Assembly (NCBI GenBank): GCA_905178155.1
Contig: CAJINV010000004.1
Span: 466,969 to 530,968 of the forward strand
Length of the DNA: 64,000 nt
Direction: 5' to 3'
DNA from: Amoebophrya sp. A120
Lineage: Eukaryota; Protista; Dinoflagellata
The position numbers and the translations under genes are program-made. Under the pieces are notes generated by a model. The model had not been told where the DNA came from. It was given only the letters and a program-made list of their open reading frames with translations, and did no database searches. Positions 1 through 63,900 of this stretch are shown piece by piece. Positions within the stretch are counted from its first letter, which is position 1, and each line of letters starts with the position of its first letter.

Positions 1-909
1 ACGTCAACATTGCGTGGAATCCCGTGACGCCGATGGAAACGGACGACGTCAACAAGCTTGTCACCGCGGTCACGAATGCCGTGCAGGATGCGGCATCGGC
101 GATTGGCTCTGGATCCGCAGCGGGTAACGTCGCTGTGTCGCAGACGCAGGGCGACACGGCCACTGTCGCGGTGACAACCACGACGAGTAGCACAACAGTC
201 GCGGCAACGACGACGACGACTACCACGACGAAACCGCTCTTGAGTAAGGGGCTAGAAATGGTGCTGAATATCCCTGACACCGCTACTGCCGCAGATGTCG
301 ACGCTGCGTTAACGGACCAGGATTTGCAAAACGCGTTGAAAGACGGTGTGATCGAGTACTTCAAGGACAAGGGAGTAACTCTAAACGCCACCCAGATCGA
401 GAACATGGTGATTACGCCGAAACCGGGGCAGAGCCCCCCGGACATTGGGGTGGACGTCAGTTTCGACGTGCGCGTTGAGCCGCAGGATGTGCCGGATTTA
501 AATATCGCCTGGAATCCCGTTACCCCACTATCCGGCACGGACTTGACAAACCTACAATCCGCCGTTGAGACCGCGGTGCTGACCGCCAGTCCGAACATCG
601 GGAACACGGGGATGGGCGTCACGGTATCGACGGACCAGGGGGATACCGCAACTGTTGCGGTGACAACGACGAGTACGAGTACCTCAGCGCCGCCCGTCGC
701 CTCGTCGACAACCACCACGACGACGCCGCTCCTGAGCAAAGGGCTAGAGATGGTGCTGAATATTCCGGGCGACGCCGCGGATGTGGACGCCGCGCTGCAG
801 GATCCTGATCTTGCGGCGGCTTTGAAAGACGGAATTGTCGAGTACTTTGCCAATAACGGCGTGACATTAACCCCGTCGCAGATCGAGAACATGGTGATCA
901 CGCAGAAGG
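1..909 (+). CDS. First exon in window (5' partial) of the giant repeat protein
   Basis: Frame of ORF 24..971 is open from position 3; domain + Thr-linker repeats; ends at TSD gaagg. Confidence 0.85.
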
Positions 910-3900
910 TATGCATTGCAAATATGTCTGGGTCTGGAAGTATCCGAACTTGTGATGCGTGTTTCGGATGATCCTACGAAGATCTGCGATGCATAACGTG
1001 CAAAAAGTGCCCACTTCTGGCCATGCTGAGAGGGCATTTCTCATGCAGAACACGCATCACGAAGGAGCTGCAGAACATGTGATGCTAGGCCCTGCATTCC
1101 AGAGGTGGGGGAGCTAGAGCTTGGAAAAACTGCATGACAAATCTCGGAATCTCCCAGACCCAGACATATTTGCATTTGATAGAAGGACAACCAGACCCCG
1201 CCCGACATCGGCGTGGACGTTACTTTCGGCGTGCGCGTGGACCCCGAGAACGTGCCGGCGGTGAACATCGCCTGGAATCCGGTCACTCCTCTGGGAGCCC
1301 AGGCGGTGACGCAACTGCAAAACGCCGTTACCGCTGCCGTCCAAACTGCAAGCGCGAACATCGGCAATGCCAATGTGGGTGTTTCGGTTTCGCAGAATCA
1401 GGGCGATACGGCGACTGTCGCGGTAACGACATCGACGACCACGACGACAACCACCACGACGACCACCACGACTACGACAAAACCATTGCTTAACAAGGGA
1501 CTCGAGATGGTGTTGACCTTCCCCGCGACAGCGAGTCCGGATGAGGTGACAGATGCGCTGAGTGACGCGGATTTGAGTGATGCATTAAAGGATGGCGTTG
1601 TGAAATATTTCGCTGATCAGGGCGTCACTCTCACCGATAGTCAAATTGAAAACCTGGTTGTCACGCAAAAGCCGGGATCCAGCCCGCCTGATGTTGGTGT
1701 GGATGTCACTTTTGGTGTCCGTGTGAACCCGGACAATGTGCCAGATGTAAACATCGCATGGAACCCAGTGACGCCTCTGGAGCAAAGCGATCTCGCATCG
1801 CTCCAAACTGCTTTGACCGACGCGGTCCAGAATTCTGCGGCAAGCATTGGCTCGGGATCTGCAGCAGGCAACGTCGCGGTGTCGCAGACGCAGGGGGACA
1901 CTGCTACTGTCGCGGTGACAACGACGACGAGCACGACGACAGTGGTCACTACAACCACCACGACAACGACGAAGCCGCGCTTGAGCAAGGGGCTCGAGAT
2001 GGTGCTCAATATCCCGGGACAAGCCGCGGATGTCGATGCGGCTTTAGCTGTATGAGAGTGCACAACTCCCCCTCCCCCTTATTTGTATAGCATCAACGGC
2101 AACACAAGCACCAGCAAGAATGCCGGTTGTGCATGACAAATTTCCACTGGATTGTAGTGCTATTTGGGCCACCAGAACTTGTCATGCAAACAGTGCCAAG
2201 AGGCAGAGGGTGGGTCGGGTATTTTGCATGACAAATAAGGGGGAGGGGGAGTTGTGAACTGTCATAAGCTGATCAGGACCTGCAAGATGCGTTAAAAGAC
2301 GGTGTGATTGCGTACTTTGATGGGAAAGGGGTGACTTTAACAACCTCGCAGATTGAAAATATGGTGATCACGCAGAAGGAGAACCAAACACCTCCAGAAA
2401 TCGGCGTGGACATTACGTTTGATGTCGTCGCTGACCCAGCAGATGTTGTGGATGTCAACGTCGCCTGGAATCCTACGATTCCTCTACCCGACCAAGACAT
2501 CTCCGACCTCAACACCGCCGTCACGCAAGCGGTGCAAACGCAAAGCGCAAACATCGGCACGGGTGGCGGGGTCACGGTGTCGCAGAACCAAGGCGACACG
2601 GCAACCGTTGCTGTGACTACCACGACCAGCACGACCTCCGTCGCAGCCACGACCACGACGACGACCACGAAACCGTTATTGAACAAGGGACTCGAGTTGG
2701 TGTTGACCATTCCATCTGGAAACGTCACTGCCGCGCTCGCAGATCCGGTGTTGAGCACGGCGCTGACACAAGGCGTCATCGATTACTTCCAGAATCAGGC
2801 GGGGGTAACGCTTACCCCGGCCGACATCAAGAACTTGGTGATTACGCAGAAGCCAAACCAAACCCCGCCGGCGATCGGCGTGGATATCAGTTTTGACGTT
2901 TCGGTTGACCCGGAAAACGTGCCGGACGTGAACATTGCCTGGAATCCGACGACTCCGATCGGCACCACCGAAACAAATCAACTTCTGTCCACTGTCACGG
3001 CCGCCGTGGCCGCGCAAAGCGGCAACATCGGAGACGGCGGCACGATCTCCGTGCAGCAAACGGATTTGGCGACTGTTCCCGCGACGACGACGACAACCAC
3101 CACAACGAAGGCGGTCCTGTCGCGGGGGCTGACCTTGCAACTGGCAATGACCGCGATATCAACTGCAAAAATGTCTGGGTCTGGAAGATTGCAACTTGTC
3201 ATGCTGTTTTTGGACTTTAAAAAAATTTGTATTCGCATGACCAGCAAGAGGGATCCACTTTGTGCTAAACGGACATGGCATTTCTCATGCGGAAGGTGCA
3301 TCAGGAAGCCCTTTAAAAGTCTGTGATGCTAGGTCATGCATTACAGGCGTCATGGATCATGAGAAATATGCATGACAAATAAGAAGGCACAGATTGTCAG
3401 GGGTGCAGAGCTCAAAAGTCGCTCATTTTCGTTTCGCACGTCGCTCACGGTCCTCCGTGGAATTTTCTCGAGGCGAAAAAAAATGTTTTGGAACGGAAAA
3501 AGACCGCGCCGCGAGTGGCAATCTCTGCCCTTTCCACTCTGAAAAATGCCCAGCCTGTGACAGTATAGATCGGGCTTTTTCAGAAGTAATTAGCGGAAAA
3601 ACAAAAGAGCAAAGTGCCGGGAAAGCGTTTTGAGACTTTTCGAAACGTTAGACAAAAGAACGCAGCACCGCAGTCGCGCCTGCCCTCGCTTGCCCACCCT
3701 TGTTTCTGCGCGACGGCTTTTGGAGAAGCCCCGGGCCCCAATCTCTGGGGCCGCCGGCGGAATTTTCTGTGACAGAGGCTGCAGTGAGGCCTCAATTCTC
3801 TTCGACCTTTTCTCGGGCTCCGGGTCAGAAGATTTCCTCTGAGGCGCTTTTTGCGGCGCCGTGGGTCAAAAAGCGGCAGAATTTGCGCTTTTTGGGCCGC

Positions 3901-6900
3901 GGCGCGCCGAAAAGCGTCTCAGAGGGTGCTTCCGACTCGTGGTCCGAAAACGATTATTCCTCTAGCTCTCGCAGAGAATGTCCGCAAGCGGCTGCGGAAA
4001 TTGGGCTCCGAGGTTTCCTCAGAAAATCTTTCCGTGGAAACGCACTCCGTTCGCGGAGAGCAATTGCCCAGCGAGGGCAGCTGTGGTATGCTGCAACTCG
4101 TCAATGTTTCCGAAAAATTTCAGGCGCTTTTTCTCCTATCTGCATTTGCGTACTTCGCTCTTTGCTTCTGAGAAAATCTGGTCGCCATTCTACACAGATT
4201 GGGGCTTTTTCAGAGGCAAAATGGCAAAAATAGCAACTCGCCGAGCGCTCTTTTGCCATTCCGCAAAAAAAATTTCACGTCTGGAAATTCTCACAGACGA
4301 CCGTGAGCGACGTACGAAACGAATTTGAGCGACTTTGGAGCTCTGCACCCCTGGGCCGCCCGTGCCTTCATAATGACAAATCTTGCATTCTTCCAGACCC
4401 AGACATATTTGCAGTTGATACGCGAGCGACCTGGACGATCCGGTCATCAAGGACGAGCTGGTGGACGCCCTGAAAGACATATGCAACGAAAAAACCATTT
4501 ACAGTTACACATTGACATTGTATTGCAGGCCAAGCAAGACAAACAAGTTCTGTCATGCCGAATATGCTCAAGAGCCTTGCTGAGTGCGTGTGTTCTCTTG
4601 TAGTCTCTGCATTACAAGTTTTCTCTGAGACGCAGATGAATAAGTTTGTGTTGCTAAAGTCGCAACATCAAATGTGTAACACATAGCACTGTTTTCCTTT
4701 GATAAGACGGCATCGTCGACTACTTCAAGGCGACCACCGGCGTGACCCTGGACCCGCAACAACTTGAAAATGTGGTGATCACACCGAAGCCGAACACGAA
4801 TCCAGTGGAAGTCGAGATCACATTCGACGTAACAGCCGACAACCCTTCGCAAGTGACCACCATCGATCTCGCGTGGAGCCCGGATGCTGTCATGCCAAGT
4901 GGCAGTGCGGAGCTCACGACGCTTCTGAACTCGGTGAAGACTTCTGTTGCGGATAGCGCCGCGCTGACAGGGGTGGTGACCGTGGAGGATACCGGGATTA
5001 CGACTGTGATTATCCCGACGACCACTACCACCTCGACCACGACCACGACAAAACCACTCCTCCCAAGAGGTTTGAGTTTGGAGTTAAATCTGCAAGATGC
5101 AGATGTGGACGGTGCATTGTCAGATCCGGACTTCTCAAATGCGGTGAAGGAGGGCATTATCAAGTACTTCCTTGATAGCGGTGTGACGCTTACCGCAGAC
5201 CAGATTGAGAACATGGAAATCCAGCAGACGTCCGGGACGGCGCCGGGCGACGTGGGCATCGAAGTGACATTTGGCGTGCGGGTTGATGATGACGCTCAGG
5301 TGGCTGCAGTCGACACTGCGTGGGACCCGGATACAACATTACCGACAACAGAAGTCGATTCGCTCGTCGACGCTGTGCAGGCCGCTGTGACAACCGCGGC
5401 GGCTAGTGTGCAAACCGGCTTAACCGTGAAAGACACAAACGCGGGCTCTGTCGTGGTGACGACAACAACGACGACGACCACGACGACGACGACCACTACG
5501 ACGCTTCCGTTGTTACAGCGGGGCTTGCAGCTAGACCTGAACATTCCGATCGGGACGACTGTCGACGATGCGTTGCAAGACCCCGCGTTGCAGGATGCTT
5601 TGAAGGCCGGCGTGGTCGCGTACTTTCAAAACGCCACGGGACTGACGTTGTCTGCCAGCGACATCGAGAACATGGTGATCACGCCGCAAACGGGGCAAAC
5701 GCAACCTAGTGTCGGCGTGGACATCACGTTTGGAGTAAGGGTTGAGCCGCAAGATGTCGTCGATGTGAATCTCGCTTGGAGCCCGGTAGTTCCGATGGAT
5801 ACTTCGGAAACGACGGAATTGCTTAATTATGTGAAAGATTCGGTTTCGGATGCTGTCTCTTCCGGAAGCATCTCCGCTACAGCTGGCGTCACCGCCGTGC
5901 AGGACACGGGGATCGCGACGGTTGCAGTGACAACCACTTATGCAGTGCAAGAGTACCGTACTAGTCGTAATCGCATCACAAATTCGCTCAGCATGAGAAA
6001 CGAAACTTGTAATGCGGATTTCCAGTGAGAAAGAGATTTGTAATGCGTGACTGCGCTTAGTGCGACCACGGTACTTTTGCAGTGCACACCAGCACGACAA
6101 CGACGACGACAACAAAAGCACTTTTAGAACGTGGGTTAACGCTCCAACTCGACATCACCGGCGACGTCGACGCCGCGTTAGCCGACACGGATTTGGCGGA
6201 CTCGGTGAAACAGGGCGTGATCAAGTACTTCGAAGCGACAACGGGGATTACCCTGACGGCCCAGGACATTGAGAACATGGTGATCACTCCCGTGAATGGA
6301 ACGAGTAACCCAGTAGAAGTCGACATCACGTTTGCGGTGCGAGTGGACGAGGAAGCCGTGACGCCCGTCAACCTCGCCTGGAACCCGACCACGCCGATGG
6401 ACGCGGGCAGCACGGAACTGGACAAATTGCTGGAAACGGTCAAGACTGTATCAAATGCAAAAATGTCTGGGTCTGGGACGAGATTGCGAGATTTGTCATG
6501 CTAGTCTGGCATGACTCTGAACTCTGTGTTGCATGGCCGCGAAGAGCTCCTCCTCCCTGTCATGCAAAAACGCAGTTTGTCATGCGAAATACGCAACTCA
6601 GAACCATCAAAAAAACTTGTCATGCTTGGCAGCGCATCACAGTGAGTTCACTATTCCCTTTCTTGCATCACAAGTTTCCAGACCCAGACGCAGACATATT
6701 TGCAATGCATAGACCGCGGTGCAGGACAACGCAGCTAGTTTGACCGGAACCGTGACCGTCCGGGACGACGCAAGTGCGGTATCAACTGTGCCCAGCACGA
6801 CGACGACCTCGACGACAACCACCACGCAGGCTGTGTTGTCCCGCTCTCTCACCCTGCAGCTCGACATCACCGGCGATGTAAACACCGCTGTGCAAGATCC

Positions 6901-9900
6901 GGAATTAGAAAACTCCCTGAAAGACGGTATCATCAAGTATTTCGAAACCACCACTGGGATCACATTGACGCCGCAAGAAATCGAAAACATGACCATCACG
7001 CCAGTGCCTGGAACTTCGCCCGTTGAAGTGAAAATCGACTTTGACGTGCGGGTCGACGGGAATGAAGTGACGCCGATCAACCTCGCGTGGAACCCAGACA
7101 CCGCCATGGCTTCCGATAGCACCGAGTATGGGACTCTCAAACGTTACATTCTCAACTGTTGCATGGATTTGTCATGCAAAATTGCCATTGCCCTCCACTT
7201 GATCAAGGTGCTTAGCATGACAAATTTTCGAAGGGCTAAATAGCATGATACTCTGTAGAAAATCTGTGATGCGAAAGTTGCAACGTTGCCACTTTCACTG
7301 TTGCTGTTCTTGCATTACAAACCCATGCAACAGTTGAGAATGTAACATTTGAGAACGCCATACCGAGGTGGAGACGCTTCTAAACACGGTGAAAACTGCT
7401 GTCTCGAGCAACGCAAATCTGCAAAATGTCGTGGTGACAGACGACAAGTCCGCGGTGGTGACCGCGACGACCTCGACTACCACAACGACAAGCACCACGA
7501 CAACCACGGACGGGCTGCTGCAACGCGGGCTGACGTTGCAGCTTGACATCACGAGCACCAACGTGACCGCGGCGCTAGAAGATCCGGACTTGGCGGACTC
7601 GGTGAAGCAGGGGGTTATCAAGTACTTCGAACTAACCAGCGGCATCACGTTCACTCCGCAGGAAATCGAGAACATGGTAATCACCCAGGTCCCCGGGACG
7701 ACTTCGCCGGTTGAAGTAGATATCACGTTCGAGGTGCGGGTTGACCCAACAGAAGTGACGCCCATCAACCTCGCCTGGAATCCCAATACTCCGATGGACT
7801 CCTCCAGTACTGAGCTGGAAACGCTCTTGAGCACGGTGAAAACGGCGGTGGCCGTATCAAATGCAAAAATGTCTGGGTTTGGAAGAATGCAAGATTGTCA
7901 TGCTTGTCTCACATGACGTTTGAATTTGTCATGCACATTACCCAAGAGCCCCATTTTTCTGTCATGCAGACACGCAGTTTGTCATGCAGAATAGGCAACA
8001 CCTAGAAGCTCAGAAGCTTGTCATGCTGAGCCAGCACTTCTTGTGGCCTTCTCATGATACGCCACCCAGCATCACAAGCTTCCAGAACCAGACAAATTTG
8101 CACTTCATAGGCCGACAGTGCCAGCGATTTCTCGCCTTCGACCATCGCCGTAAAGGACAACGCGGCGGCGGTTGTCACGATCTATGGACTGCAAAAGTAT
8201 CGTACTCGTATAAATGCATGACAAATTTCCTCAGCATGAGAAATGAAATTTGTAATGCAGATTTGCCTTGGGAACAAGATTTGTAATGCATGACTTGCAT
8301 TTATACGAGTACGATACTTTTGCACAGGATACGATCACGAGCAGCACTACATCGACCACGACGACGACGTATGCATTGCAAAAGTAACGCACTCGTAGTA
8401 ATTGCTTTGGTGCATGACAAATCTCCTATCTTAGCTCAACCAGCATTACAAATTCCACTTTTCTTCTTGGCGAAATTTGTCATGCTATTTGTTTCTACTA
8501 GTACGATAGGATACTTTTGCAACGCATACGACGACCACCACGACGACGGTGGTGGAGCGGACGTTTGAGCTGGAGCTGAACATTCCGGGGAACGTCGACG
8601 ATGCCTTGAATGACCCGGACCTGAAGGACGCCATGATTGACGGTGTTATCAAGTACTTCGAGCAGAGCACGGGGATCACCTTGACGGATCAGCAAATCGC
8701 GAGCATGAACATCACGCAAAAGAACGGGACAACGGCCGACGCGAGCGGAAATGTGCAAGTGGAGATCTCGTTCGGAGTGTCTGTGAATCCAAGTCAGTCT
8801 ACCGCGGTGAACCTCGGCTGGAGTCCCGACACTGCTATGAGTCCGAACGGAACCGCGATCAGTACCTTGTTGAATAGTGTGCAAACAGCCGTGTCCACGA
8901 ACACCGGGTTGACAAACGTGGTGTCCGTCGACACTGATGCGGACATCGCAACTGTTCCGTCGACCACGACGACGTCCACTACGACTTTGAGCACTATTGC
9001 TGTCAAGCCTTTGCTCACCCGCGGCTTAACCCTGCAGCTCGATGTCACGAGCAGCAACCTGACGGAGTCGCTGCAAGACCCGGACTTGGCGGACTCGGTG
9101 AAAACTGGTGTGATCAAGTACTTTATCAAATGCAAAAATGTCTGGGTCTGGAAGAGTGCAAGATTTGTCATGCATATTTCTCATGACCTATGATGCGTGT
9201 AATGCTTGACTAGCATCGCAGACTTTTAGAGAGCTTCCTGATGCACCTTCCGCATGAGAAATGGCCTGTCTGTGTGGCAAAAACTGTACCCCTCTTGCTG
9301 GTCATGCAATACAAATTTTTTTAGAGTCCAAAAACAGCATGACAAGTTGAAATCTTCCAGACCCAGACATTTTTGCAGTTGATATACTTCGAGCTTACCA
9401 CCGGCATTACGTTGACGGAGCAAGAGATCGAGAATTTGGTCATCACGCAGGTCCCGGGCACGACATCCCCTGTGGAAGTCGACATCACCTTCGGTGTTCG
9501 CGTCGAGGAGAATCAAGTAACAGCAGTCAATCTTGCCTGGAATCCGGACACATCCATGGCTCCTGGTAGCACCGAGTTGGACACCTTGCTCGACACGGTT
9601 AAGACTGCGGTCGCGGACAATGCGGCGAGCTTGACCGGCACTGTCACAGTAAAAGACGATGCGAGTGCGGTGTCAACTGTGCCGAGCACAACGACTAGCA
9701 CGACTACCACGACGACTAAGCCTGTCTTATCTCGGTCTTTAACTCTGCAGCTCGACATCACGGGCGATGTGGCTACAGCGGCGCAAGATCCGCAGCTGGA
9801 GAAATCCTTGAAGAACGGCATCATTGAGTATTTCCAGCTGACGACTGGAATTACTCTGACGCAGGACGAGATTGAAACCATGACAATCACCCCAGTGTCT

Positions 9901-12900
9901 AGAATATCCAAGAAAAAAACTGTGTTAGTGTAGCTGTGTTGGGGTAACAGAATGACAAAGCTGCTCTGCATGACAGAGAAGTCCTATCATGCACAGCTAG
10001 TATGTGAAAAGACGTAAAGGAAACAGGCCACTGAGATTATGGCTGGCCAGTACGACAAGGACAATCAAGCGTAATGCATTTACAGACTTACACTTGCGCT
10101 GTTTTTTTCGTGCATATGGAACCTCCCCGGTTGAAGTGGATATCGACTTCACAGTGAGGGTGGAACCGTCGGAAGTGACGCCCATCAACCTGGCTTGGAA
10201 CCCGAATACCGCCATGGCGGCCAATAGCACAGAGGTGGAAACGCTTTTGAAAACGGTGAAAGCCGCTGTTTCGAGCAACACCAATCTGCAGAATGTTGCG
10301 GTTACAGACGATGTGTTTGGTGTGGTTACCGCAGAGACAACCAGCACGACGACCACGACGAAATCAACTCTTCTTCGCAGCTTCGATTTGGAACTCACCA
10401 TTCCGCAGAACACTACCGTCGCCGACGCGCTTGCGGACCCGGATTTGAAGGATGCTATGATTACGGGTATCATCGATTACTTCGAGGAATCCACCGGAAT
10501 AACTTTGGCTCCAGACCAGATCGCGAATCTGAACATCACGGAGGGTACCACCACTGGGCAAACCGTCGGAGTCACGGTGGATTTTGGTGTCGAAGTCACC
10601 GACGCAGACCAAGCGACCGCGGTCGACCTCGGCTGGAGTCCCACCACGGCGTTACCGACTAACGGCGCCCAAGTCAACGCGTTGCTCGACAGCGTGCAGG
10701 AAGCGGTTGCGGGGAATACTGGCTTGGATAACGTGGTCGAGGTGGAAGACACTGCAAACCTTTCGACTACTCCGGTCGTCACCACCACGACGTCGACCAC
10801 CACAACCAGCACAACGCGGCCGCTGCTGACCCGCGGGTTAGAATTACAGTTGAACATTCCGGGCAACGTGCGCACGGCTTTGTCCGACACGGCGTTACAG
10901 CAGTCGGTGAAGGAAGGAGTTATCGAATACTTCTTGTTGACCGCGGGGATCGAGCTCACCGCCCAACAAATCGAGAACCTCGACATTTCCCAAATCTCCG
11001 GCACTTCCCCGCCGGATATCGGCGCCAAAGTGACCTTCGGCATCCGTTGCAACGAAGACGACGTGACGACCATCAACCAGGTGTGGAGCCCGACCAGCGA
11101 AATCCCGGCGGGGGGTAACGCTTTGAAAACCCTTTTGGAGTCGGTGACCAAGGCGGTAGCCGACAATAGCGGGAATTTAGCGACACCAGTGACGGTGAAA
11201 GACACCGGGATCGTATGGAAAGAAAAAAGTTTGTCACAGTCACTAACTTGGAGGTTTTGCAAATTTTGTGAGCGTCACAAATTTTCCTTGTATTGCAGAA
11301 ACACTACGGAAACCCCGTATGAACTTTGGCTGCGAAGACGCATTTTTACGCATGACTGACAGACATTTCTGTATTGCAAAAATACCCATCTTCAGTGATC
11401 GTGACAAACTTTTTTCTTTTGATAGATTGCGACCCTTCCCGCATCGACGACCACCACGACGACAACGACGAAGGCGTTGCTACCCCGTGGTTTGAATTTA
11501 CAATTACAAATTCCACAGGGAAATAACGTCACCGCGGTCTTGGCTGATCCGAAGCTGAAAGAGTCTTTGGTTTCGGGTATCATCCAATACTTCAAGGAGG
11601 AAGAGGGCATCACGTTGACGCCCGACCAAATCGAGAACCTCGACATTACCCAAACTTCCAGTGGCGCAAATAACGTGGTTGGTGTCCAGGTCACGTTCGC
11701 GGTACGCGCGGAAGATGATACGCAGATTACGCAGATTAACACGGCCTGGAGTCCGGACACGGTTCTGGATCCTTCCGGCACGCAGATTGATAATTTACTC
11801 AATACCGTGAAATCCGCTGTGACGAACAACGCGGCTCTGACCGGGACGGTAACCGTGCAAGACGACGGAGTGGCCACGGTGGTGGTCACGACCACTACAA
11901 CGAGCACCACCACGCTTGCGCCGCCGTTCGAAGCGCAGCGGCAAATCACCTTCACGTTTGACGTGAAGAGTCTGTCCGACGCGGAGGCCAGTACGCTAAT
12001 GACGAACGCAACTTTGCGCGGCGCGATCATGACTGCGATGGAAAATTTCGTGAAGGATACACTGCAAATCCCCGACAATAACGCCCCCGCGATCGGCAGT
12101 GTGCTCTTGCAAATGTTGGGAAAGCAGCAAGCGGACACGGCGGGGGACGATCGCATTACCGTTCAGGTTTTGTTCCGGTTTCAGGATTACGATGAACAGA
12201 AGATCAGTGCTTTGACCAGCAAATGGGACGCGGTACAAGGGTTAAGCGCTAGTGAAGAGACGGATCTGGTCGAGGATCTGCGGGCGGCGATCACGGCTGC
12301 TGGCTTTGCGCTCACCGCGATCCCGGCGGCCGGGGGCCTGCAGAGTCCCACCACGTCGACCAGCACCACGACAACGACCGCGGCAGAAGCGGCGACGACC
12401 ACGACAACGGAAGCCCCGGCGACCACCGCGACTACTACGACAACCGCCGCTCCGGTACTGGAGTTGACGCGGCAAATCACGTTTACCTTTGACTTAGACA
12501 AACTCTCCGAGCAGCAATCTTCGGACATGATGACGGACGACAAGATGAAATCGGCTGTGAGAACCGCGGTGGAGGAATTTCTCCTGTCCACGCTGCTCAT
12601 CGACCCCGCCGACCGGGCGCCGATCGAGTTCGTGGCGCTGCAAAAGTTCAGCCACCAGAAAAACACTCCCCAAACGGACATTGACCGGATCACGGCGCAG
12701 GCCAGCTTTGTGTTCCGATCGACGGACCAAGCGCTGCTGGACAAAGTTTCCGACAAGTGGTCCGCTACTGGCGGTTTGACGGATGCGCAGAAATCCAGTT
12801 TGGTCACCGAGCTGCAGACCGCAATCGCAAACGAAGGCTTTACGGTATCCGCCATCGCCGGCGCGGGCGGGTTAACCAGTCCGACCACGACAAGCACGAC

Positions 12901-51900: not shown

Positions 51901-54900
51901 TTCAAGGTGAAGGGCGATAACGAGACGTTAGCATTGTTGAACCAAACCTGGTCGCCTTTGGCTTTGACCCCGTCGCAAACGGACTTACTCGAAACCTCGA
52001 TCAACGACACTATCATTGCAGCCGCGATACCGGGGGTCCAAGTGCATTACGTCGTGCCACTACCGGCGCCGCCACCGACGACGACCACAACGACGACGAC
52101 AACCACGACGACAACGACGGTGTTGACGAGGATCCGGGAATTCGCCTTGAATTTCACCGTGGATGATAACTACTTCGCATTCGCAGATAGGTCAACTTTG
52201 TTCTCCAATGCGCAACTGTTGAACGCCGTTGCGGACGGGAGCATGAACTTCTTGAAATCGAACGGATTGGTAGACTTGACGAACTCATATCCACAGTAAA
52301 TTTCCCGCACACGTACAAATGCGATCTCTGCATGGCAAAACTTGTCTTCTTTCCTAGTTTAGCATGAGAAGTTTTACACTCCAAATTGGTGAAATTTGTG
52401 ATGCATCTTGTACATGTACGGGAAATTTGTATTGCATAACTCAGCAATGGTGCAGGACACGGTGCTGAATCCGAAAGGGCAGTCCGTAAAGGAAAACTCG
52501 ACGGACTTGTACTACTTGGGAGCCGTGGCGACGTTCACGGTTAGTGGAACGGAATCCACTTTGAACAGCATCGACAACACCGCCTGGACGCCCGCGAACT
52601 TGACGGAGGTGCAGACAAAAGCGCTGCTCGCGGATGTGAATGCTTCCGTTGTCGGCTCCGGATTACAAGGGATTCAAGTAGGGCAAATCATTCCGATGGT
52701 GGCGCCGACGACTACCACCACGACAACTCCACCAACCACTACGACCACATCCACGACGACAACTTCGACGGGGATGATATGGAGTTCTCAAATGTTACAT
52801 TCTCAACTGTTACATGAATTTGTAATGCAAGACTGGCAAAATTGGAAGGAGGAAGAAGATTGCGCCTTTTGCATTACAAGTTTGGCGCAGATTTAGATGC
52901 TGTCTAGCCCTCCCGAAATTTGTCATGGGAAACAGCTCGATCATCTGCCGGCTTAAGGTGCTTTTGCATGGCAAATTCATGTAACAGTTTAGAATGTAAC
53001 GTTTGAGAGCGCCATAGATGATTCTCCGCGAGTTCAATGTGGAGCTGCAGATCAACGAAACCGTGTTCAGCAAGGACTATTTGGATTCCGATGTGAACCT
53101 CATCGCCGCTCTGGCCTCCGGCGCGTACAATTTCTTCATTTCCGCGACCGTGCCGGACATCATCGAGACAGATTTGAAGGACCGGAAAATCACGATCTTC
53201 TCCGAAGTTTCCGCAGGGACACCTTTGTGGGACATGGACATCATTTACGGTTTCAGCATTTCCGGGAACAACGAAACCTTGACAAACGTGAACGACACCT
53301 GGTCGGATGCGGGTTTGGCCGGGAACCAGGAAGTTGCGCTTCAGTACGCGGTGCAGCAGGCGATCACTGGTAGCGGGTTGCAGGGACTCAAAGTAGGCGC
53401 AGTGACCACCGGCCCCGCGCCGACGACCACCACGTCGACAACCACGACGACGAACACGACGACCACAACGACGACGACATTACCGACAGACATGCGGCGG
53501 TTCGATTTGGACTTCACGATCAATGAGAATGTGGTTGCGGATAAACAAGTTCTGCTCACTGATATGCAAGAAAAAAACTGTGTAAGTGTAAATCTGTGAT
53601 GCAGAAAATGCAAAACAGTAACACTCATCATGCTGCAATTGCGTCATAGGCTACTATCACACGTGTTTCCACCACGTACTAGCTGCGCATGACAGGTCCT
53701 CCCTGTCATGCAAAGCGAATTTGTGATGCTGCTCTTCCTACAGAGTTCACTTACACAGTTTTTTTCCTGGATGGCAGACCAGTCCCTGTTGAAGGCGATC
53801 GCGGAGGGGTCGGTGACCTATTTGACCGCGAACGGGTTTATGAACATCAGCAACGACTTTGAAATCTACAACACGACCCTAACGGAGGATCCGAACGCGA
53901 CCAGCACGCTGACGGCCGACCCAACTGCGCTGGACACGATTTTCAACTTCTACCTCCGCGGTCAACCGGATACCATGAGCGATTTGCCGCTTGCTTGGGA
54001 CGCGAGTGGATTAACGGCTCCACAGTTGAAAGAGTTGACAAATGCGGTGAACGCGTCGGTTATCGCTGCCAGCATTGCGGGCGTCAAGGTCGGAAAGATC
54101 GCACCTTTGGTCACCCCGACGACAACCACCACGACGAGCACAACGACCACAACCAACACGACGACAACCACCACGACGACTTCCACGACGACAACCACCG
54201 GTCGCGGGCAGCGTCAGTTCAACGTGACAATTGTGATCGACTCTACTTTAGATCCGAACACGGACGTCGCGTTGGACCCGAACGTTTTGACTGCGTTCGG
54301 GGAAGCTGAGTACGACTATTTAAGGCAGGCGGGGATGATTTCCCTTATCAAATACAAAAGTCTACTCTGGGTCTGGAAGATTCATTGTGAGATTTGTCAT
54401 GCTGATCTGGCATGTTGGCCCTCAAATCTGTATTGCGTGGCCACAAACAGCCTCTCTCGCCTGTCATGCAAAAACGCAGCTTCTCATGCGGAATACGCAG
54501 CACAGAAGCACGAAGCAACTTGTCATGCTTGGCGGCGCATTACAGTGCATTTGTTATTGACTGACTTGCAACACAAGTTTCCAGACCCAGACATTTTAGC
54601 ATTTCATATCCCTGACCTTCTCGCAAATCGAAAACCAAACAATCACGATAGAATCGATTGTCCTATCGGGTTCCGGCGCCACCTACATCGCGAACGCGGT
54701 GTCCAACTTCGACGTTGTGGGTTCTGCGGACAACCTATCAAATGCAAAAGTGTCTGGGTCTGGAAGGTTGCAACTTGTGATGCTGTCTTTGGAAGGCAAA
54801 AACAATCTGTATTGCATGACCAGCAAGAGGAGTTCAGTTTGTGCTACGCGGAGTGGGCGTTTCTCATGCGGAATACGCATCAGAAGGCCCTGCAAAAATC

Positions 54901-57900
54901 TGTGATGCTAGGTCATGCATTGCAGGCATCATGGGTTATGCAAAATATGCATAACAAACCTGGCACTCTTCCAGACCCAGACACTTTTGCACTTGATACA
55001 ACCTCGCGCAGCTAGACAACGCCTGGTCCCCTATCAAGAAGAAAAATCCCCCCTCCCCATATCAAAACGGAAATCTGTGATGCAGATTTGTGGTCACAAA
55101 TCAGCTTTGCCATGCTAGAACGGAAAAGATGCGGACTGTAGTGGTGGTTGGCGTGGGAAAGGGTTGCATCTTCAGCATGACAGGAGGCAGCTGGAAGCGG
55201 GAAACAGCATGACAAATTGCCTGCAAAGGAGGCCACAGCTGCGACTCTTGGCATTCTAGCATTACATACAAGTCGATTTGTGTACTCAAATACAGCAGCA
55301 CAAATTTGGTTTTCGATATGGCTATGGGGAAGGGGGATTTTTCCTTTCGATATCCCCTCTTGCAAACGGGCTGGACAGCAACATGACCAAGAAGCTCGTC
55401 GATTTGATCGACCAGAAAATCGCTGATGCGGGCATCACCGGGATCGATGTGTCCGACGTTGCGCCGGCACCAGCGCCAACGACAACGACCACCACAACCA
55501 CCACGATGGGGATCAATTTCAGGCAATTCGAGATTTACTTGACCATCAACGACACCATTGACCCGGACCAGCTGATTGTCGACCCGGATTTACTCGCCGC
55601 ACTGCAGCTGGGTGAGTTCAACTACTTAGTTGGGTCCGGGATGACGAATTTGACGCTATCTGACATCGTCAACCAAACGATGGAGATTTCGAAGCTGTCG
55701 AACCAAACAACGTTGATGCTCATCGAGGTCGCGAGAAAGAAGGGGAAGTTAGTCGCAAAAGTGATTTCCAAATTCGGAGTTCTGGGTTACCAGCCGACTT
55801 TGGATCTACTGGACCAGATTTGGGACGCGTCCGGGCTGTCGAATGTGCAACTGGAGGCGCTGAAAAATGAGGTGAAAGCGACCGTGACGAACGCTGCCAT
55901 TATGGATTGCAAATATGTCTGGGTCTGGAAGAATTGGAATTTGTGATGCTGTTTTTGGACTCGAAAAAAAATTGTATTGCATGACCAGCAAGAGGGGTGC
56001 AGTTTTTGCTACACGGACAGGGCATTTTTCATGCGGAAGGTGCATCAGGAAGCCCTCTAAAAGTCTGCGATGCTAGGTCAAGCATAACAGGCATCATGGG
56101 CCATGAGAAATATGCATGACAAATGTTGCACTCTTCCAGACGCAGACACTTTTGCAATCCATAGCCATTCCCGGCGTGCAATTCGGTCAAATCGCGTCGA
56201 TCGCGGCGCCAACAACGACGACATCGACGACGACAACCTCAACCACCACTACAACGACTTACGGAACGGAGTTACGGAGGTTCGATATTGACTTCACCGT
56301 GAACGATAACTACTACCCGATTAAGGGGGACATTCTGGATGAGCCGGATTTGATCGACGCCTTGTACGAAGCGTCTTTGGAATTCTTAACAAACAACGGC
56401 TTCGTCAACACCACCGGCACGACCGTATCAACTGCAAATATGTCTGGGTCTGGAAGATTCTAAACTTGTGATGCTGTCTCTGGATTCGAAAAAAATTTGT
56501 ATTGCTTGACCAGCAAGAGGACTCCAGTTTGTGCTGCGCGGAGAGGGCATTTTTCATGCGGGATAGGCATCGAGAAGTCCTCAAAAAATCTGTGATGCTA
56601 GGTCATGCATAACTGGCGTCATGGATCATGATGCAAAATATGCATGACAAACCTGCCAATCTTCCAGACCCAGACATATGTGCAATGCATAGACCGTCGG
56701 GTTGACCAACTTCACGCTTACCGACCGCTACACCGGGGCGCTGGCGAACACGAGCTATCTAGAGGCGGACGTGGTCTTTGGTATCACCGGCTCGGCCGCA
56801 ACCCAAACCTCTGCGGTCGCCGCGTGGAACCCGCAGAATTTAACCGCGAACGCAACCGCAGAGCTGATTGACTTGATCAAGGACAAGGTGGCTGCGACGG
56901 GCCTGATCGGGTTCGAAGTGGGGAAAATCGTGCCAGTGGCAACCCCGACCACGATATCAAATGTAAAAATGTCTGGGTCTGGAAGATTGGAACTTGTGAT
57001 GCTGCATTTGGATTGCAAAAAAATCTGTATTGCATGAGTAGCAAAGGGAATGTGATTTTTGCTACGCGAAGATGGCATTTGTAATGCGGAATAGGCATCA
57101 AGAAGGCCTCAAAAAATCTGTGATGCTAGGGCACGCATCACAGACATCAAGACTCATGCAAAACCTGCATCACAAATCTTGCATTCTTCCAGACCCAGAC
57201 ATTTTTACAGTTGATACACGACCACAACGACGACCACGACAGTGACCAGCACGACAACGACAGTGCTGAACACCACGACAACGACGACCACAACCCGTTT
57301 GTTTGAGGAGCGCGAATTTGAACTGTATTTAACGATTGACGATACGATCAACACAACGGCTATGGGAGTGTCAGGATTGAAATCGACAAAGTTGAAGTGA
57401 TTTGTCATGCATAAAATGGATGCCAGCTGTCACCCAGTTTTCAAATGGCGCATGACAAATTTGGGTAGAGCCATGCTGTTTGGGTAAGGAAGACGCCTTT
57501 TGCCATGCTGTTTGGGTAAGGAAGACGCCTTTTGCCATGCTGTTTGGGTAAGGAAGACGCCTTTTGCCATGCTACTTTACCAGCTCTGCTGCTACCCCTC
57601 AGCAGGCTTTCTAAAATCTGCCTCCCTTGCCAACTCTGCAAGACAGGCATTTTGTGTGTTGCATTTTATGCATCACAAACTATTTCAACTTTGACGATCT
57701 CAATCCTGACGCTTCCATAACGGCTTTAATGGTGGACCCGAACTTGCTGACCGCTCTGGTCGAGGGAACGTGGTCATTCTTCGATCTGGAGCAGACCAAC
57801 GTCACGATTGACATGTTCCAGGAGGAGAATATCCTGTGCAAAAGTATCGTACTCGTAGTAATCGCAATCATGCATTACAGATTTCCATCTCAAGGTAAAA

Positions 57901-60900
57901 CAGCATCACAAATTACATTTGTCACGCTGACCGAATTTGTAATGCGATTTCTACTTGTACGATGCTTTTGCAATGCATAGAGAATTTGATGATCTTATCT
58001 TCCACGAATCAAACAACAGTTGCGGCTGCGAACACTTCCAGTTCGTCTGTCTTGATGCTGGTGCAGGTGGCGAAGAAGAAGGGGAAACTGGTGCTGCAAC
58101 TGGTCTTCAACTTCAAGATCTACGCGGACACACCGACGCTGAACATCGTGGACTCGGTTTGGCTCGACGCTGGCTTGTCTGTGAACCAGGTTTCGAGCTT
58201 GAAGTACGAAATCACCGAAAGTGTAAACAACGCGGGGATCCAAGGGGTCCAGGTGGGGCAGATTTCCTCGGTTGCGGCCCCCACGACGAGCACAACGTAT
58301 GACAGTGGACAACTCCCCCTCCCTCTCATTTCTCATGCGAAATACCCAATCCACTCTTTGCCTCCTGGCACTGTTTGCGTGACAAGTTCTGGCAGCCCAA
58401 AGAGGACTACACTCCATTGCCAACCTGTCATGCAAAGCCGGCATTCTTGCTGATGCTTGTATTGCCGTTCATGCAATACAAATGAGGGGGAGCAGGGGGA
58501 TTAGTTGTGCACTGTCATACAACGAGCACGAGTACGACAAGTACCACGAGCACCACAACGACCACAACGGGCTTCCGGATTCGGCAGTTCGACATTGAAT
58601 TCACCGTGAACTTGACTGTCCATCCGAACAAGGAGGACTTGCTTTCGAACATCAAACTGCTCAAAGCATTATCTGAGGCCAGTGTCTATGCATTGCAAAT
58701 GTGTCTGGGTCTGGAAGGTTGCAACTTGTGACGCGCATTTCACAATACAGACAAATCTCTCATGCATAGGCAGCAAGAGACGTCCACTTTCTGTTACCAA
58801 AGTGGTGAATTTATCATGCGGAGTAAGCAATGCGGAAGCTTCTCGAAATCTGTGATGCTTGAGCTTCTATGACAGACATTCTGTGTCATGCAAAAGCAGC
58901 ATGACTCTTCCAGACCCAGACATCTTTGCAATGCATAGTGTCAACTACTTGAACGCCAATGGGTTTGACAACAGCACGGGGACGGGAAAGCTGATCAACC
59001 AAACGCTGGTGCAGATCGCCAACGCTTCGGCCGCCGCGATGGACCCGTTCTTGCAGACGACGGCAAAATTCGCCATTGTCGGTGACAATCAGACGGTGAT
59101 GTCTGTCGATGCAGCGTGGTCGCCGGGGGTTCTAAACGTGAACCAGACGAAGGATCTCGTCAACGCGGTGAACGCAACCGTGATTGTCGCGAACATCGCG
59201 GGTGTGAAAGTTGGGAAAGTCATTCCAAAAGCGGCCCCGACGACCACGACGACGAGCACCACGCCTGCAGAGACGACGACCACCACTTCGACCACAACAA
59301 CCACTTTGGGTCTGTACTACCGGCAGTTTGTGATCGACCTGACTATAGACGATAGTATCAACAAGACGGAGCTAGCGTCGGACCCGAATTTGCTGACCGC
59401 GTTCAGCCAGGCGAGTTGGGACTTCCTGATCGCGCAGGGCATGACAAATCTCGCCTACGCCCAGATTGAAAAGCAGTCGATCACGATTGTTTCCCAGTCG
59501 GGCAACTACACGACGAACACGTCTGCCGTGATTCTGTTGGAGTTATCCACCAAGCGGGTCAGGAGAGAATTTGTGGAAGTGGTTTCCAGCTTCGCGATTC
59601 GGGGAGACGCGACGCTGAAGCAGGAGCTGGACACGTACTGGAATCCGGTGACACTTTCTTCGAACGAGACGGATACTTTGCAGCAACTGCTCGATGACGC
59701 GGTTTACCTTGCGGGAATTGCGGGCGTGCAAGTAGGACAAATCACCCCGTTGCCCGCGCCGACGACGACCACAACCACGACAACCTCTACGACGACCACC
59801 ACCACGACGACGACGTTGGCGACAGAGACGAGAATCTTTGACATCGACTTCACGGTCGACCCCGGGGTGGATAAAGCTGCGCTACTGTCGAACAGCTCCG
59901 ACTTGCCACAGGCGGTGGCGCAGGGTGCGTTGGACTTTCTCACGGCTGCCGGATTTGTGAATTCCACCGGTGGTGCGGCGGAAGCAGCGGGCTTCGAGTT
60001 GTTACCGTTGAACAACAGCGCCGCTAGCAGTTCGGCGTACCTGGAGACGCAGGGAACGTTGAAATTGAAGGGAGACCCGACTGCGGTTAGTTCTATCGAA
60101 AGCTCCTGGACCGAGCCTCTGTCCGATACACAAACCAAACAGCTCCTTTTATCCTGAGTAAAAACGTACCCACACCAGAGTCAGGATGGGGATTTTGCAA
60201 CACAAACCTAGGGGTTTTGTGAGTCACGCATGACAAGTTGCAGGCTGTATTGTAGTGCAGTTTAGCAAGGGAAGCCGCATAACAAATCCACCTCCTCATC
60301 CTGTTCACAGCATCACAAATTCCAAAACACGATTGGAAATTGCTCTCATGGGGATGCGCATTACAAGTCTTCCTGTCTTTGCAAATCTGCATTACAACTC
60401 TGGTGTGGGTACGTTTTTACTCACGATACCTTTCCGCGATCAACGACACTGTGATAGCTTCCAACATTCCTATGGCGATCTCAACTGTTACATTCTCAAC
60501 TGTTACATGAACTTGTGATGCAAGAACTGGAAAAGTGCAAGGGGGAAGGTTGCACCTGTAGCATTACAAATTCCGCACAGATTTAAGTGCGGTTTGGGCC
60601 TTCGCAAATTTGTCATGCGGAGCAGCTTGATCGTGAGGATGATGATGCTGCTTTTGCATGACAAATTCATGTAACAGTTGAGAATGTAACAATTGAGAAT
60701 CCCATAATTCCTGGCGTGAAAGTCGGCCGGGTGGTGCCCAAAACGACGACCACCACAACGACATCCACCACCACGACCACGACGACTTTCGGTCTGTATC
60801 TCCGGCAGTTCGACATGGATTTAACGATCGACGACACCATCATCACCGACCAGAACGCCGTGCTCACCGATCCGGACGTTTTGAATGGGTTGATGACGGG

Positions 60901-63900
60901 TACGAAAAATTACCTGGTGAACGCGGGTCTAAACATCACGCTCGCGGACATCGAGGACCAGAAGTTAGAGCTCGCCACGAACAGTACCGGCACGCCCTAC
61001 GTCATGCTTTTGCATTTAGTTGCGAAAGCAAAGAAGGCGCATGCTGGTCGGAGGCAGCAGAAAGGGTTGCTCGAAGTCGTTTCCTCTTTCGGCGTCCGCG
61101 GGGACAACGCGACTAGGGACGGATTGAATACCTTGTGGGACCCGAGCGGGTTGTCGGTGAATCAATTACTGATTCTGAAAGACGCTCTGAACACTTCCTT
61201 CACGACACTGCAAATCCCGGGAGTTGTCATCGGAAAAATCGCGTCCATGCCGCAGCCGACAACCACAACGACGACCACCACGTCTATCCACAGCAAATTT
61301 TGTTCCGCACATGACTTTCCAGGGGCGCTGCTGCACGATCACAGAGCTCCTCTCTAACTCTATTTGGCATGACAAACTATCGGCTTGTTTCCATCGATTG
61401 GGACGATTTGTGATGCATTTTGCACATGTGCGGTACAGTTTGTGTTGCATAGCATCGATTGCAAGCAGGACGTTCAACATCGACTTTACGGTGTCAAAGA
61501 TTTTGATTCCGAATTCCGAAAACATCGTTAACTACCCGACTCTGATGGACGCGTTGTCGCAGGGTGTGGAAAAATACATGGAGGACGCGGGGGTGAATGA
61601 AACCTTCGCGGTGGAAAACATGACGCTGAACGTTACTTCTGTCACGAGCGGTGCCATGTCGAACACGGTGGCGACGAAAGCCGACTTCATCTTCGAAGCT
61701 GGCTCTGACACCGGTTTCGCCCAGATCGACTCCGTTTGGGCGGCGCAGTCGACCTTCGACCAGAACGAGACGGACAAACTCCTGGACGCCATCAAGCCGG
61801 AGGTTGCCGTCGCGGCGAACTGCGCCGGCATCACCGTCGGCTCTGTCGCGCCGGTGCCGCAGCCGACGACCACCACAACCACAACGACGACGACCACCAC
61901 AACAACCACGACGCTGCCGCTGATTCATCGAGAATTGGACCTGGATTTCACAGTGAAAAACGGCGTCAATATCACCGCTCTGCCGGAAAACGAAAACCTC
62001 GTCACTGCGTTATCCCAGGGAACCTGGAGCTTCCTGATTGCGGGGAACATGACAGGATTGCCCTTCGACCAGATCGAAAATGACGAATTCAAAGTGCAGT
62101 CGGTGGGGAACACCACCGCGGCAGAGACGATTGTTTCTATCATGTGGCGGTTCGGGGTCCGGTGTGATAGTGCTATGCAAGTCAAATTCGACCAGGCCTG
62201 GAACCCGGTGGGGTTGACGGCGAACGAGACGGCCTCTTACACGAAAAGGCTGAACGCGACGGTGTTCAATGCGGGGATTCAGGGCGTGCAAGTGGGGAAG
62301 ATCACGGCCGTCGCCGTCCCGCCCACAACAAGCACGACCACCACGACCACTATCACGCTTGGGGAGGTCGTTCGGGCGTTTGACTTGGATTTCACGGTGG
62401 ATTCGAACATCATCAGCGACAAAAACGACTTGCTGACCAACCAGGTCTTGCTCGATGCGCTGGCGAAGGGGTCCGCGGACTTCTTGAACAGCAACAACCT
62501 GGTGAACACCAGTGGCCTCGCGGAAATCCGGAACCAAACTTTGACCCTCCGCGCAGGCGCGAGTCAGAGTGGGGACTACCTCGAAACGGTGTCGCAGTTC
62601 ACCCTAGCGGGGGACAGCGCCACTCTCGGGTCGATGCCGGGCGCTTGGCCAGCGGGGACGCTGACGACCGCGTTGACCGAAGCGCTGCAACAAGCGATCA
62701 ACGCGACCGTGATTGCGGCGAACATTGCTGGCGTGAAGGTGGGGAAAATCGCGCCGCTACCGGCGCCGACCACGACCACCACGACGACGACGACAAGCAC
62801 CAGCACCACTACAACGACCACGACCACCACGACAGAAGCGTTAGCCCTCCGCGAGTTCGAGCTGAAGTTAACGGTTGACGACAGCTTGGATATCGACGAA
62901 ACCTTGAAGAACACCACGTTAGTTACTGCGGTCGCGAAAGGGTCGCTGGCATTCTTGGTGAACGCGGGGATGACGGAATTGAATTTCACCCAGATCGAGA
63001 ACCAAACGCTGACTTTGAAAACCGCGAATCCATTCTTGCTCCTAGAAAACGGCCACAGGGTTTCGAAGAAGGCCGTCTACGATGTTGTCTCGAAGTTCGG
63101 TGTGCGGGGTGACAGCCCAACGCTGACCGCCTTGGACATTGCGTGGGACCCGCAGGGGCTGAACAGTACAGAGTTGACGGATCTTTCCGACCGGATCAAA
63201 ACCGCGGTTCTTAACGCCGGGGTCTCCGGGGTGCAAGTCGGGGACATCACGCCCCTGCCTGCGCCGACGACCACCACGACCACAACCACGACAACCACCA
63301 GTACGACCACGACGACAACCACGATCGGAATCGCTTACCGCGAGTTCGATCTGGACTTCACGGTCGACTCGAACGTGATTGCGGACAAGAACACGCTCTT
63401 AACCGACCCGCAATTATTAGACGCGATTTCCGAGGGTAGTTTGGAGTTTATGAAGGCCAACGGGTTGGTGGTCACGACGGCGAACAACGGGTACAGTGCG
63501 CAGATCGAAAACCAAACTCTGAGCCTGAATCCGAGTTCCAGCAATACTATCGCTGGCTATCTGGAAACGGTGTCCAAGTTCGGCCTTCGTGGTGGGAACG
63601 ATTCGATTGCGAGTATGCCGACCGCCTGGCCGGAGCAGACGTTATCGGATGCGCAATTGGAGGAGTTGTCGAAAAAGATCAACGAGTCCATGATCGCCGC
63701 CAACATTGCCGGGGTGCAACTCGGCAAGATCGCGCCAAAACCCGCACCGACGACGACAACAACGACGACGACCACCACGTCGACCACCACGACGACCACG
63801 ACCACTTTCGGCATCGCGGAGAGGATTTTCGATCTCGATTTCACGATCGACTCCGCGCAAATCCCCGACAAGACCGCGCTGTTGACAAACCAAAACCTGA

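Follow-up and report, generated by a model that had tools for sequence, protein, structure and literature searches.

We analyzed a 64,000-nucleotide stretch of the Amoebophrya sp. A120 genome (assembly GCA_905178155.1, contig CAJINV010000004.1, positions 466,969 to 530,968), referred to here as the window. On the plus strand, the whole window reads as a single long reading frame with 54 breaks. This frame belongs to a giant repeat-protein gene (3..63998, plus strand, 55 exon pieces) and is open at both window ends, and the gene is therefore longer than the window. At 52 of the 54 breaks lies an element with terminal inverted repeats (TIRs), and these elements extend from 910 to 61451. We consider it probable that they are TIR transposons inserted in the exons of the gene and that they are removed from the pre-mRNA, along with one copy of a flanking direct repeat, by a stem-guided spliceosome that works without U1.

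The 52 elements range from 148 to 1264 bp in length, with a median of 237.5 bp. Fifty of them start with TAT, 49 end with ATA, and 47 have both. All 52 sit between 5-bp direct repeats with a mean identity of 0.92, and 35 of these repeat pairs are perfect. Perfect direct repeats of 2 bp were seen in 5/52 elements, while lengths of 3, 4, 6, 7, 8, and 9 bp gave 0/52. A logo of the 104 element ends had T in 102, A in 103, and T in 102 at its first three positions and was A rich at positions 11 to 14. As a control for chance, pairs of TAT..ATA ends with a TIR of at least 13/20 and a perfect repeat were counted; the window contained 32, while every one of 20 windows resampled with a Markov model had 0. 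When the repeats were cross-paired between elements, 2 of 2,652 combinations matched.

Excision in silico of the 54 inserts, each as the element and one repeat copy, left 46,186 nt, or 15,394 codons, free of stops, and this result was the same whichever repeat copy was kept. For the two breaks that are not TAT elements, the pieces removed were a GT-AG intron (32348..34254) and an insert span (37009..38898). Retention of the element broke the frame or added a stop in 52/52 cases. The original prediction, made from the sequence alone, had given the same two counts (52 of 54 breaks, 35 of 52 perfect repeats) and had claimed that deleting each element with one target site duplication (TSD) restores a frame without exonic stops; our analysis reproduced all of this. 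The strict scan used TAT..ATA ends, a TIR of at least 13/20, and a repeat of at least 3/5; it returned 52 rows that included cross-pairs, from which 41 nonoverlapping elements were kept. The other 11 elements were located at frame breaks that these 41 did not account for (10 + 1). One wrong automatic element boundary likewise gave a restored frame, so that frame restoration alone is weak evidence. The element boundaries are instead fixed jointly by the TIR, the direct repeat, and the consensus of the protein repeat.

The exons encode about 90 units of ~141 amino acids (aa) with threonine (Thr) tracts between the units, and the protein as a whole is 19% Thr. Among 38 paralogous unit pairs, the differences at codon positions 1, 2, and 3 were 0.35, 0.24, and 0.59. 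With 0 stops in 15,394 codons and this excess of divergence at the third position, the exons look constrained. From its composition, we infer a mucin-like protein that is probably glycosylated and located at the surface or secreted. A Pfam scan of five exon pieces (6,452 of 15,394 aa, 42%) gave no credible family. EspA reached 24.9 bits against a cut-off of 23.4, yet no single stretch passed, and we rejected it as a repeat artefact. A profile-free protein search of 1.84 billion representatives gave five matches. Two of them, P0004 and P0001 (which clusters with P0006), contain the same ~141-aa unit and are named as proteins of Amoebophrya sp. A120; taken with the element signature, they point to A120 as the host. 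P0002 (65 residues within the window) and P0005 are unnamed fragments of 79 to 100 aa that are identical to the last exon, and P0003 was discarded as a relative, its match being to a Thr tract only. No annotated protein spanning an element junction was found, as word-based searches had no hit at an E value of ≤0.001 and the five profile-free matches cross no junction. Since only the two identical fragments of 79 to 100 aa turned up in the protein collections, the full gene may be absent from public annotation.

We inspected the element borders for splice signals. A frame-preserving GT-AG register exists in 2 of the 52 elements, with 1.5 expected from random exon sites, as the original prediction had anticipated in stating that most elements have no usable GT-AG. 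A GC-AG register is available in 2 more, which leaves canonical U2 borders (GT/GC-AG) in just 4/52. The 17 elements with unequal repeats could in principle reveal the cut. Eight of these differences are synonymous, 3 fall in Thr tracts, and 6 could be scored, with two registers tied at 4. By eye, a cut always placed one base ahead of the TIR seemed preferable, and it was dropped when scoring tied it with another register. A cut inside the direct repeat is supported by the sequences of elements 4, 39, and 52. Of 10 sequencing runs listed in a run search, 4 contain the stretch and none of these is recorded as RNA, which speaks neither for nor against transcription. Reads of the RNA runs X5 and X6 were placed on 46000 to 62000 at 85% identity (147 and 420 reads, of which 146 and 416 only partly). 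They fall on TIR ends and Thr tracts with none over unique exon and are uninformative on splicing; among the 15 read joints listed, apart from 698 others, none lies at an element border.

The published border motifs offered another approach. The A120 gene models were built with BLAT (PMC7789003; here and below, papers are cited for the sections covered). We simulated the removal of the element and 5 nt, let the aligner then shift inside the repeat until it best matched G-T..A-G, and compared the outcome with the end spectrum of A120 family fam1 (n = 1322, 32 categories). Precise removal followed by the slide gave a Kullback-Leibler (KL) divergence of 0.04 to 0.07, and all 32 categories were reproduced, including GT-CG. 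By comparison, the +3 splicing model gave 0.24 to 2.3, and a slide without motif preference gave 0.37 to 0.42. The combination of TAT and 5 bp fit best among 21 settings of terminus and TSD length, with 6 bp being close. Because a slide inside the repeat reproduces the spectrum, the published border dinucleotides tell nothing of the true cut. Within its assumptions, the simulation supports precise excision. The central claim of the original prediction, precise excision without GT/AG, thus draws support from the sequence, the A120 homologues, the published description of A120, and the simulation, and for this locus it is carried over from them.

With a 60% coverage rule, the elements (numbered 1 to 52 along the window) fell into seven multimember families of 17, 7, 5, 5, 4, 3, and 2 (43 elements) and nine singletons. 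Mutual divergence was 7 to 25%, and the best pairs were up to about 93% identical. All seven families occur in both orientations, with element 40 left unoriented. Family A consists of elements 1 (910..1181), 3 (3157..4420), 6 (6449..6711), 8 (7855..8109), 11 (9124..9384), 18 (23306..24302), 20 (25174..25464), 24 (30554..30815), 27 (34792..35057), 28 (36152..36427), 34 (50064..50331), 40 (54346..54608), 41 (54736..54998), 43 (55901..56163), 44 (56426..56691), 45 (56955..57216), and 49 (58687..58937). The TSD is 5/5 throughout this family except in element 6 (4/5); elements 1 and 27 have the GT-AG register, element 8 has a GC-AG register, and element 34 starts with TAA.

Family B comprises elements 9 (8183..8331), 10 (8370..8528), and 47 (57830..57979) with a TSD of 5/5; elements 23 (28423..28584), 31 (46152..46306, GC-AG register available), and 36 (51656..51803) with 4/5; and element 5 (5939..6088, end ACA) with 3/5. 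Family C has elements 2 (2051..2266), 25 (31780..31986), and 48 (58298..58519) at 5/5 and elements 22 (26939..27156) and 32 (46402..46624, start TAG) at 4/5. In family D, elements 16 (22236..22524), 19 (24358..24638), 35 (50572..50859, end ATT), and 50 (60150..60428) have 5/5 and element 29 (39979..40257) has 3/5. Family E is made up of elements 30 (40744..40894) and 37 (52288..52438) at 5/5 and 14 (20134..20311) and 33 (47734..47883) at 4/5, and family F of elements 7 (7127..7362), 38 (52778..53016), and 51 (60471..60706), all at 5/5. The two members of family G are element 15 (21927..22134, 5/5) and element 39 (53563..53773, 3/5, end ATG). The singletons are elements 4 (4480..4704), 12 (9905..10116), 13 (11214..11424), and 21 (25938..26135) with a TSD of 4/5; elements 17 (22592..22755) and 52 (61285..61451) with 3/5; and elements 26 (34411..34732), 42 (55032..55352), and 46 (57361..57719) with 5/5. 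Elements 26 and 42 count as singletons by the coverage rule, and the ends of element 42 resemble those of element 26.

The insertions appear clustered. The exons at 11430..20133 (8.7 kb) and 40900..46151 (5.3 kb) are free of elements, compared to 22 elements in the 15 kb at 46152..61451. The codon phase of the 52 insertion sites is uneven (26, 14, and 12; P = 0.037, uncorrected).

The two long elements, 3 and 18, are family A copies that carry nested inserts. The one in element 3 (3380..4372) is ~1 kb long with a near-palindromic TIR, an 8-bp direct repeat, and ends TAA..ATA, and going by the repeat length we take it to be hAT-like. The one in element 18 (23389..24082) has inverted ends TAG..CTA and no clear direct repeat. 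No convincing open reading frame (ORF) was seen in the elements when the four long inserts were read by eye, without a library search. With the two nested elements set aside, 50 elements were folded, and in the predicted minimum-energy structure at least 10 of the 20 terminal positions were paired in 43 of them.

One motif, GCATNAC, spans all families. It occurs 168 times in the elements (13.8 kb) and 18 times in the exons (46.2 kb), which is a 31-fold higher density. The same motif is found in the GT-AG intron at 34225..34231, where its A lies 24 nt before the intron end. We presume that it is compatible with a branch-like UnA pattern, and it may be either branch-site-like or a transposase-binding site.

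Further copies of the elements lie outside the window. For the DNA contigs X3 on 46000 to 62000, summed depth was 4 to 21 in element-free bins compared to up to 55,000 in element bins, which indicates many further copies without giving a copy-number value. Runs X5, X6, and X8 (RNA or RNA-like, with the same species label) contain element ends and copies that are ~85 to 99% identical and have other flanks, so that the element families occur in those runs as well, whether as transcripts or as DNA.

The remaining two breaks are of different kinds. The sole canonical GT-AG intron (32348..34254, plus strand, 1907 nt) has internal tandem repeats. Within it, a T/C-rich tandem repeat (32900..34050) has minus-strand open frames of 326 to 490 codons in all three frames, which we took as an effect of the repeat. 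The other break is an insert of another kind (37007..38894) that is TA flanked, with ends CTC..GAG, a 22-bp subterminal inverted repeat, and no GT-AG. Inside it are a 96-bp hairpin and tandem repeats of ~98 bp, and taking it out along with one TA brings the frame back. We take this insert to resemble Tc1/mariner-type miniature inverted-repeat transposable elements (MITEs). Judging from the frame, a TA-flanked insert unlike the TAT elements seems to be tolerated in the gene as well.

Noncanonical introns with inverted and direct repeats are known from Amoebophrya (PMC7789003 and PMC12130899), as the original prediction had stated. In A120, 65% of RNA-supported introns are noncanonical, with a length of ~240 nt, and 29,850 introner elements in 1,954 families have been described (PMC7789003). 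Their inverted repeats start with TAT, continue with seven variable bases, and then have at least 3 A's, and their direct repeats are 3 to 5 nt long (PMC7789003). The U2, U4, U5, and U6 RNAs and nearly all spliceosomal proteins were found in A120, while U1 was not (PMC7789003). In all, U1 is reported missing in two strains with noncanonical introns (PMC7789003) and present in a strain with canonical introns (PMC12005148).

Based on these data, we propose the following model. The elements would be nonautonomous, their movement depending on an integrase-like DDE transposase that is supplied in trans and cuts with a 5-bp stagger, a step that we hold to be somewhat better than an even bet; the window itself contains no transposase. 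Removal of the element and 5 nt at the RNA level would very probably restore the original coding sequence, going by the published A120 RNA data and the simulation. It is likely that pairing of the TIRs draws both repeat copies close to each other and takes the place of GT/AG recognition, with the cut falling inside the repeat, and equivalent cuts in both copies would restore the exon whatever the orientation of the element. Whether a modified U2-type spliceosome without U1, rather than a separate enzyme, carries out the catalysis is in our estimation evenly balanced. A changed spliceosome is favored because its other parts are present, and because U1 is reported absent from the strains that have such introns yet found in one that lacks them. 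It is also favored because GCATNAC, dense in the elements, occurs in the GT-AG intron as well, 24 nt from its end.

Several observations count against this model. For a spliceosome, one might look for G at the repeat positions that make GT or AG, and it is not enriched (16 observed versus 14.9 expected and 19 versus 16); a weak signal in the opposite direction is that both G's occur together in 7/52 elements versus 3.5 expected (P = 0.057, not phase matched). The elements have no pyrimidine tract (0.52 versus 0.70 in the GT-AG intron). The imperfect repeats do not settle on one cut register, and a terminal stem of at least 10 pairs does not form in 7 of the 50 folded elements. GCATNAC is strand symmetric in the elements (79 versus 89 matches), only 28/52 elements have it on the sense strand at a distance of 20 to 80 nt from their 3' end, and it may be a transposase-binding site. 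The simulation takes the BLAT slide rule as given, and it is assumed that fam1 is a TAT/5-bp family and that fam1 and fam38 are families of the window. No published element sequence was matched directly to the window, two short TIR words being absent from the 13 files searched among the 14 supplement files of PMC12130899, and according to the sections of PMC7789003 covered, no transposase was found in A120.

The main alternative keeps the same precise removal from RNA and assigns it to a nonspliceosomal, structure-guided nuclease-ligase that reads the long terminal stem between direct repeats. Such an enzyme would need neither the canonical dinucleotides, for which there is no sign of selection, nor a pyrimidine tract; it is compatible with either orientation, and the TA-flanked insert and the kilobase-sized nested inserts, which also leave the frame restorable, fit it as well. 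For the Euglena introns, pairing of the ends is required, and a machinery of their own has been suggested (PMC12501133). The Euglena signature, however, was seen in 0/52 elements in any register. We know of no candidate enzyme, and the reported absence of U1 in two strains with such introns and its presence in a strain without them point to an altered spliceosome instead. We regard this alternative as possible, though the less likely of the two. A broader version, in which a family-blind, nonspliceosomal RNA repair removes stem-closed inserts, the elements form an integrase-like superfamily not described before (TA..TA ends, 5-bp TSD), and the motif diversity is alignment slide only, strikes us as doubtful.

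The other alternatives fared poorly. A relaxed spliceosome could cut one base outside the TIR (N-T...A-N), leaving 8 of the 10 repeat bases and adding one codon per insertion. This register also gives 0 stops, and 8 of the 9 top noncanonical end pairs for A120 in Table S4 of PMC7789003 are NT-AN. It seemed open on six marginal counts and was discarded once all 32 categories were compared, since under a motif-seeking aligner it cannot yield the third of fam1 ends that lack NT or AN, and without such an aligner the fit is poor (KL of 0.24 to 2.3 versus 0.04 to 0.07). Moreover, only precise removal predicts the GT-CG pair listed in Table S4, and we consider the added-codon register very unlikely. 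Equally improbable, in our view, is that the gene is dead or silent, an unspliced locus where MITEs have accumulated. From the protein collections, no more than two short fragments identical to the window were retrieved, each lying in the last exon, and word-based searches gave none. Against this, the elements have diverged by 7 to 25% and 17 repeats have decayed, yet 46 kb of exon contains 0 stops or unexplained frameshifts, and the codon positions differ in the way that constraint would produce. Elements might also be eliminated from DNA in the expressing stage, as are the internal eliminated sequences of ciliates, and a TIR with a direct repeat of which one copy is left is an anatomy usable for precise DNA excision. 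The DNA contigs X3, though, include pieces that cross exon-element borders. In addition, PMC7789003 defines the introns as junctions of RNA versus genome in an organism with a single type of nucleus and mentions no elimination program in the sections covered, making DNA elimination scarcely credible.

The phenomenon and its end signature are already known for A120, having been described in 2021 and cataloged again in 2025. What is new here is an exact geometry for one locus, an account of the published motif diversity by slide, an insert unlike the others that seems to be tolerated, and a GCATNAC motif common to the families. This set of introns is among the strangest known. The locus could serve as a test bed, as it places 52 junctions in one transcript, 17 of them with unequal repeats able to reveal a register that perfect repeats hide, and its TA-flanked insert tests whether removal is family blind. 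If the pathway proved to be nonspliceosomal, introns of nuclear pre-mRNA would have a second route of removal, and it would become clear how a genome can bear exonic insertions in the tens of thousands. Among openly accessible papers, we found none that maps the A120 cut site or lariats or that ties the elements to IS3EU.

Compared to the A120 introner elements of Farhat et al. (2021, PMC7789003), the window elements share the TAT start and A run, a TSD within the 3- to 5-nt range, many noncoding families, noncanonical borders, and length (235 nt here versus ~240 nt). The intron density is ~1.2 per kb of coding sequence here versus 1.42 genome-wide. Nothing differs in kind from that description; here, the repeat is exactly 5 bp and lies directly outside the TAT/ATA ends. 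Gozashti et al. (2025, PMC12130899) reported that most A120 introner families are TIR DNA elements and that tens are possible per gene, features shared by the window elements, as are the lengths of 149 to 320 bp for the large families. In the same paper, A120 fam38 is annotated as "5-bp TSD, TA/TA Termini" with an integrase-like ORF and without Ginger termini. By description, fam38 is ~810 bp long, and by eye the window elements have no such ORF. The original prediction held that TAT...ATA ends with a 5-bp TSD match no nameable superfamily. The combination indeed fits no defined superfamily fully, and the fam38 annotation had already put the signature of a 5-bp TSD with TA/TA termini on record.

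Integrase-related DDE transposons are the likely kin of the elements. IS3EU/GingerRoot shares the TA..TA ends, while its usual 6-bp TSD is not seen here (0/52 perfect at 6 bp) (PMC10045372). The TNT..AYA ends of IS481EU agree with TAT..ATA in 47/52 elements; its TSD is given as around 4, 15, or 25 bp, compared to 5 bp here, with 0/52 perfect at 4 bp (PMC10045372). The TGTNR ends of Ginger1 and Ginger2 are not matched, TGT being present at 1 of 104 element ends, and of the TSDs reported for Ginger1/Ginger2 (4 bp) and TDD-4/5 (5 bp), only that of TDD agrees with the window (PMC2836005). Judged by ends and repeat length, TAT..ATA with 5 bp thus fully fits none of IS3EU/GingerRoot, IS481EU, and Ginger2/TDD. 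Euglenid nonconventional introns likewise have paired ends and direct repeats along which the border can slide (PMC12501133 and PMC11282704). Their signature (5'-N3CDG ... CH'G N5-6 followed, after the border, by a purine; PMC12501133) occurs in 0/52 elements over six registers, and the introns here are families of TIR transposons. The elements also resemble the MITE introners of Micromonas and Aureococcus (PMC11282704 and PMC7789003), nonautonomous TIR/TSD transposons that became introns on insertion. Those introners carry or co-opt canonical splice sites, whereas the elements in the window offer GT-AG at chance level (2/52).

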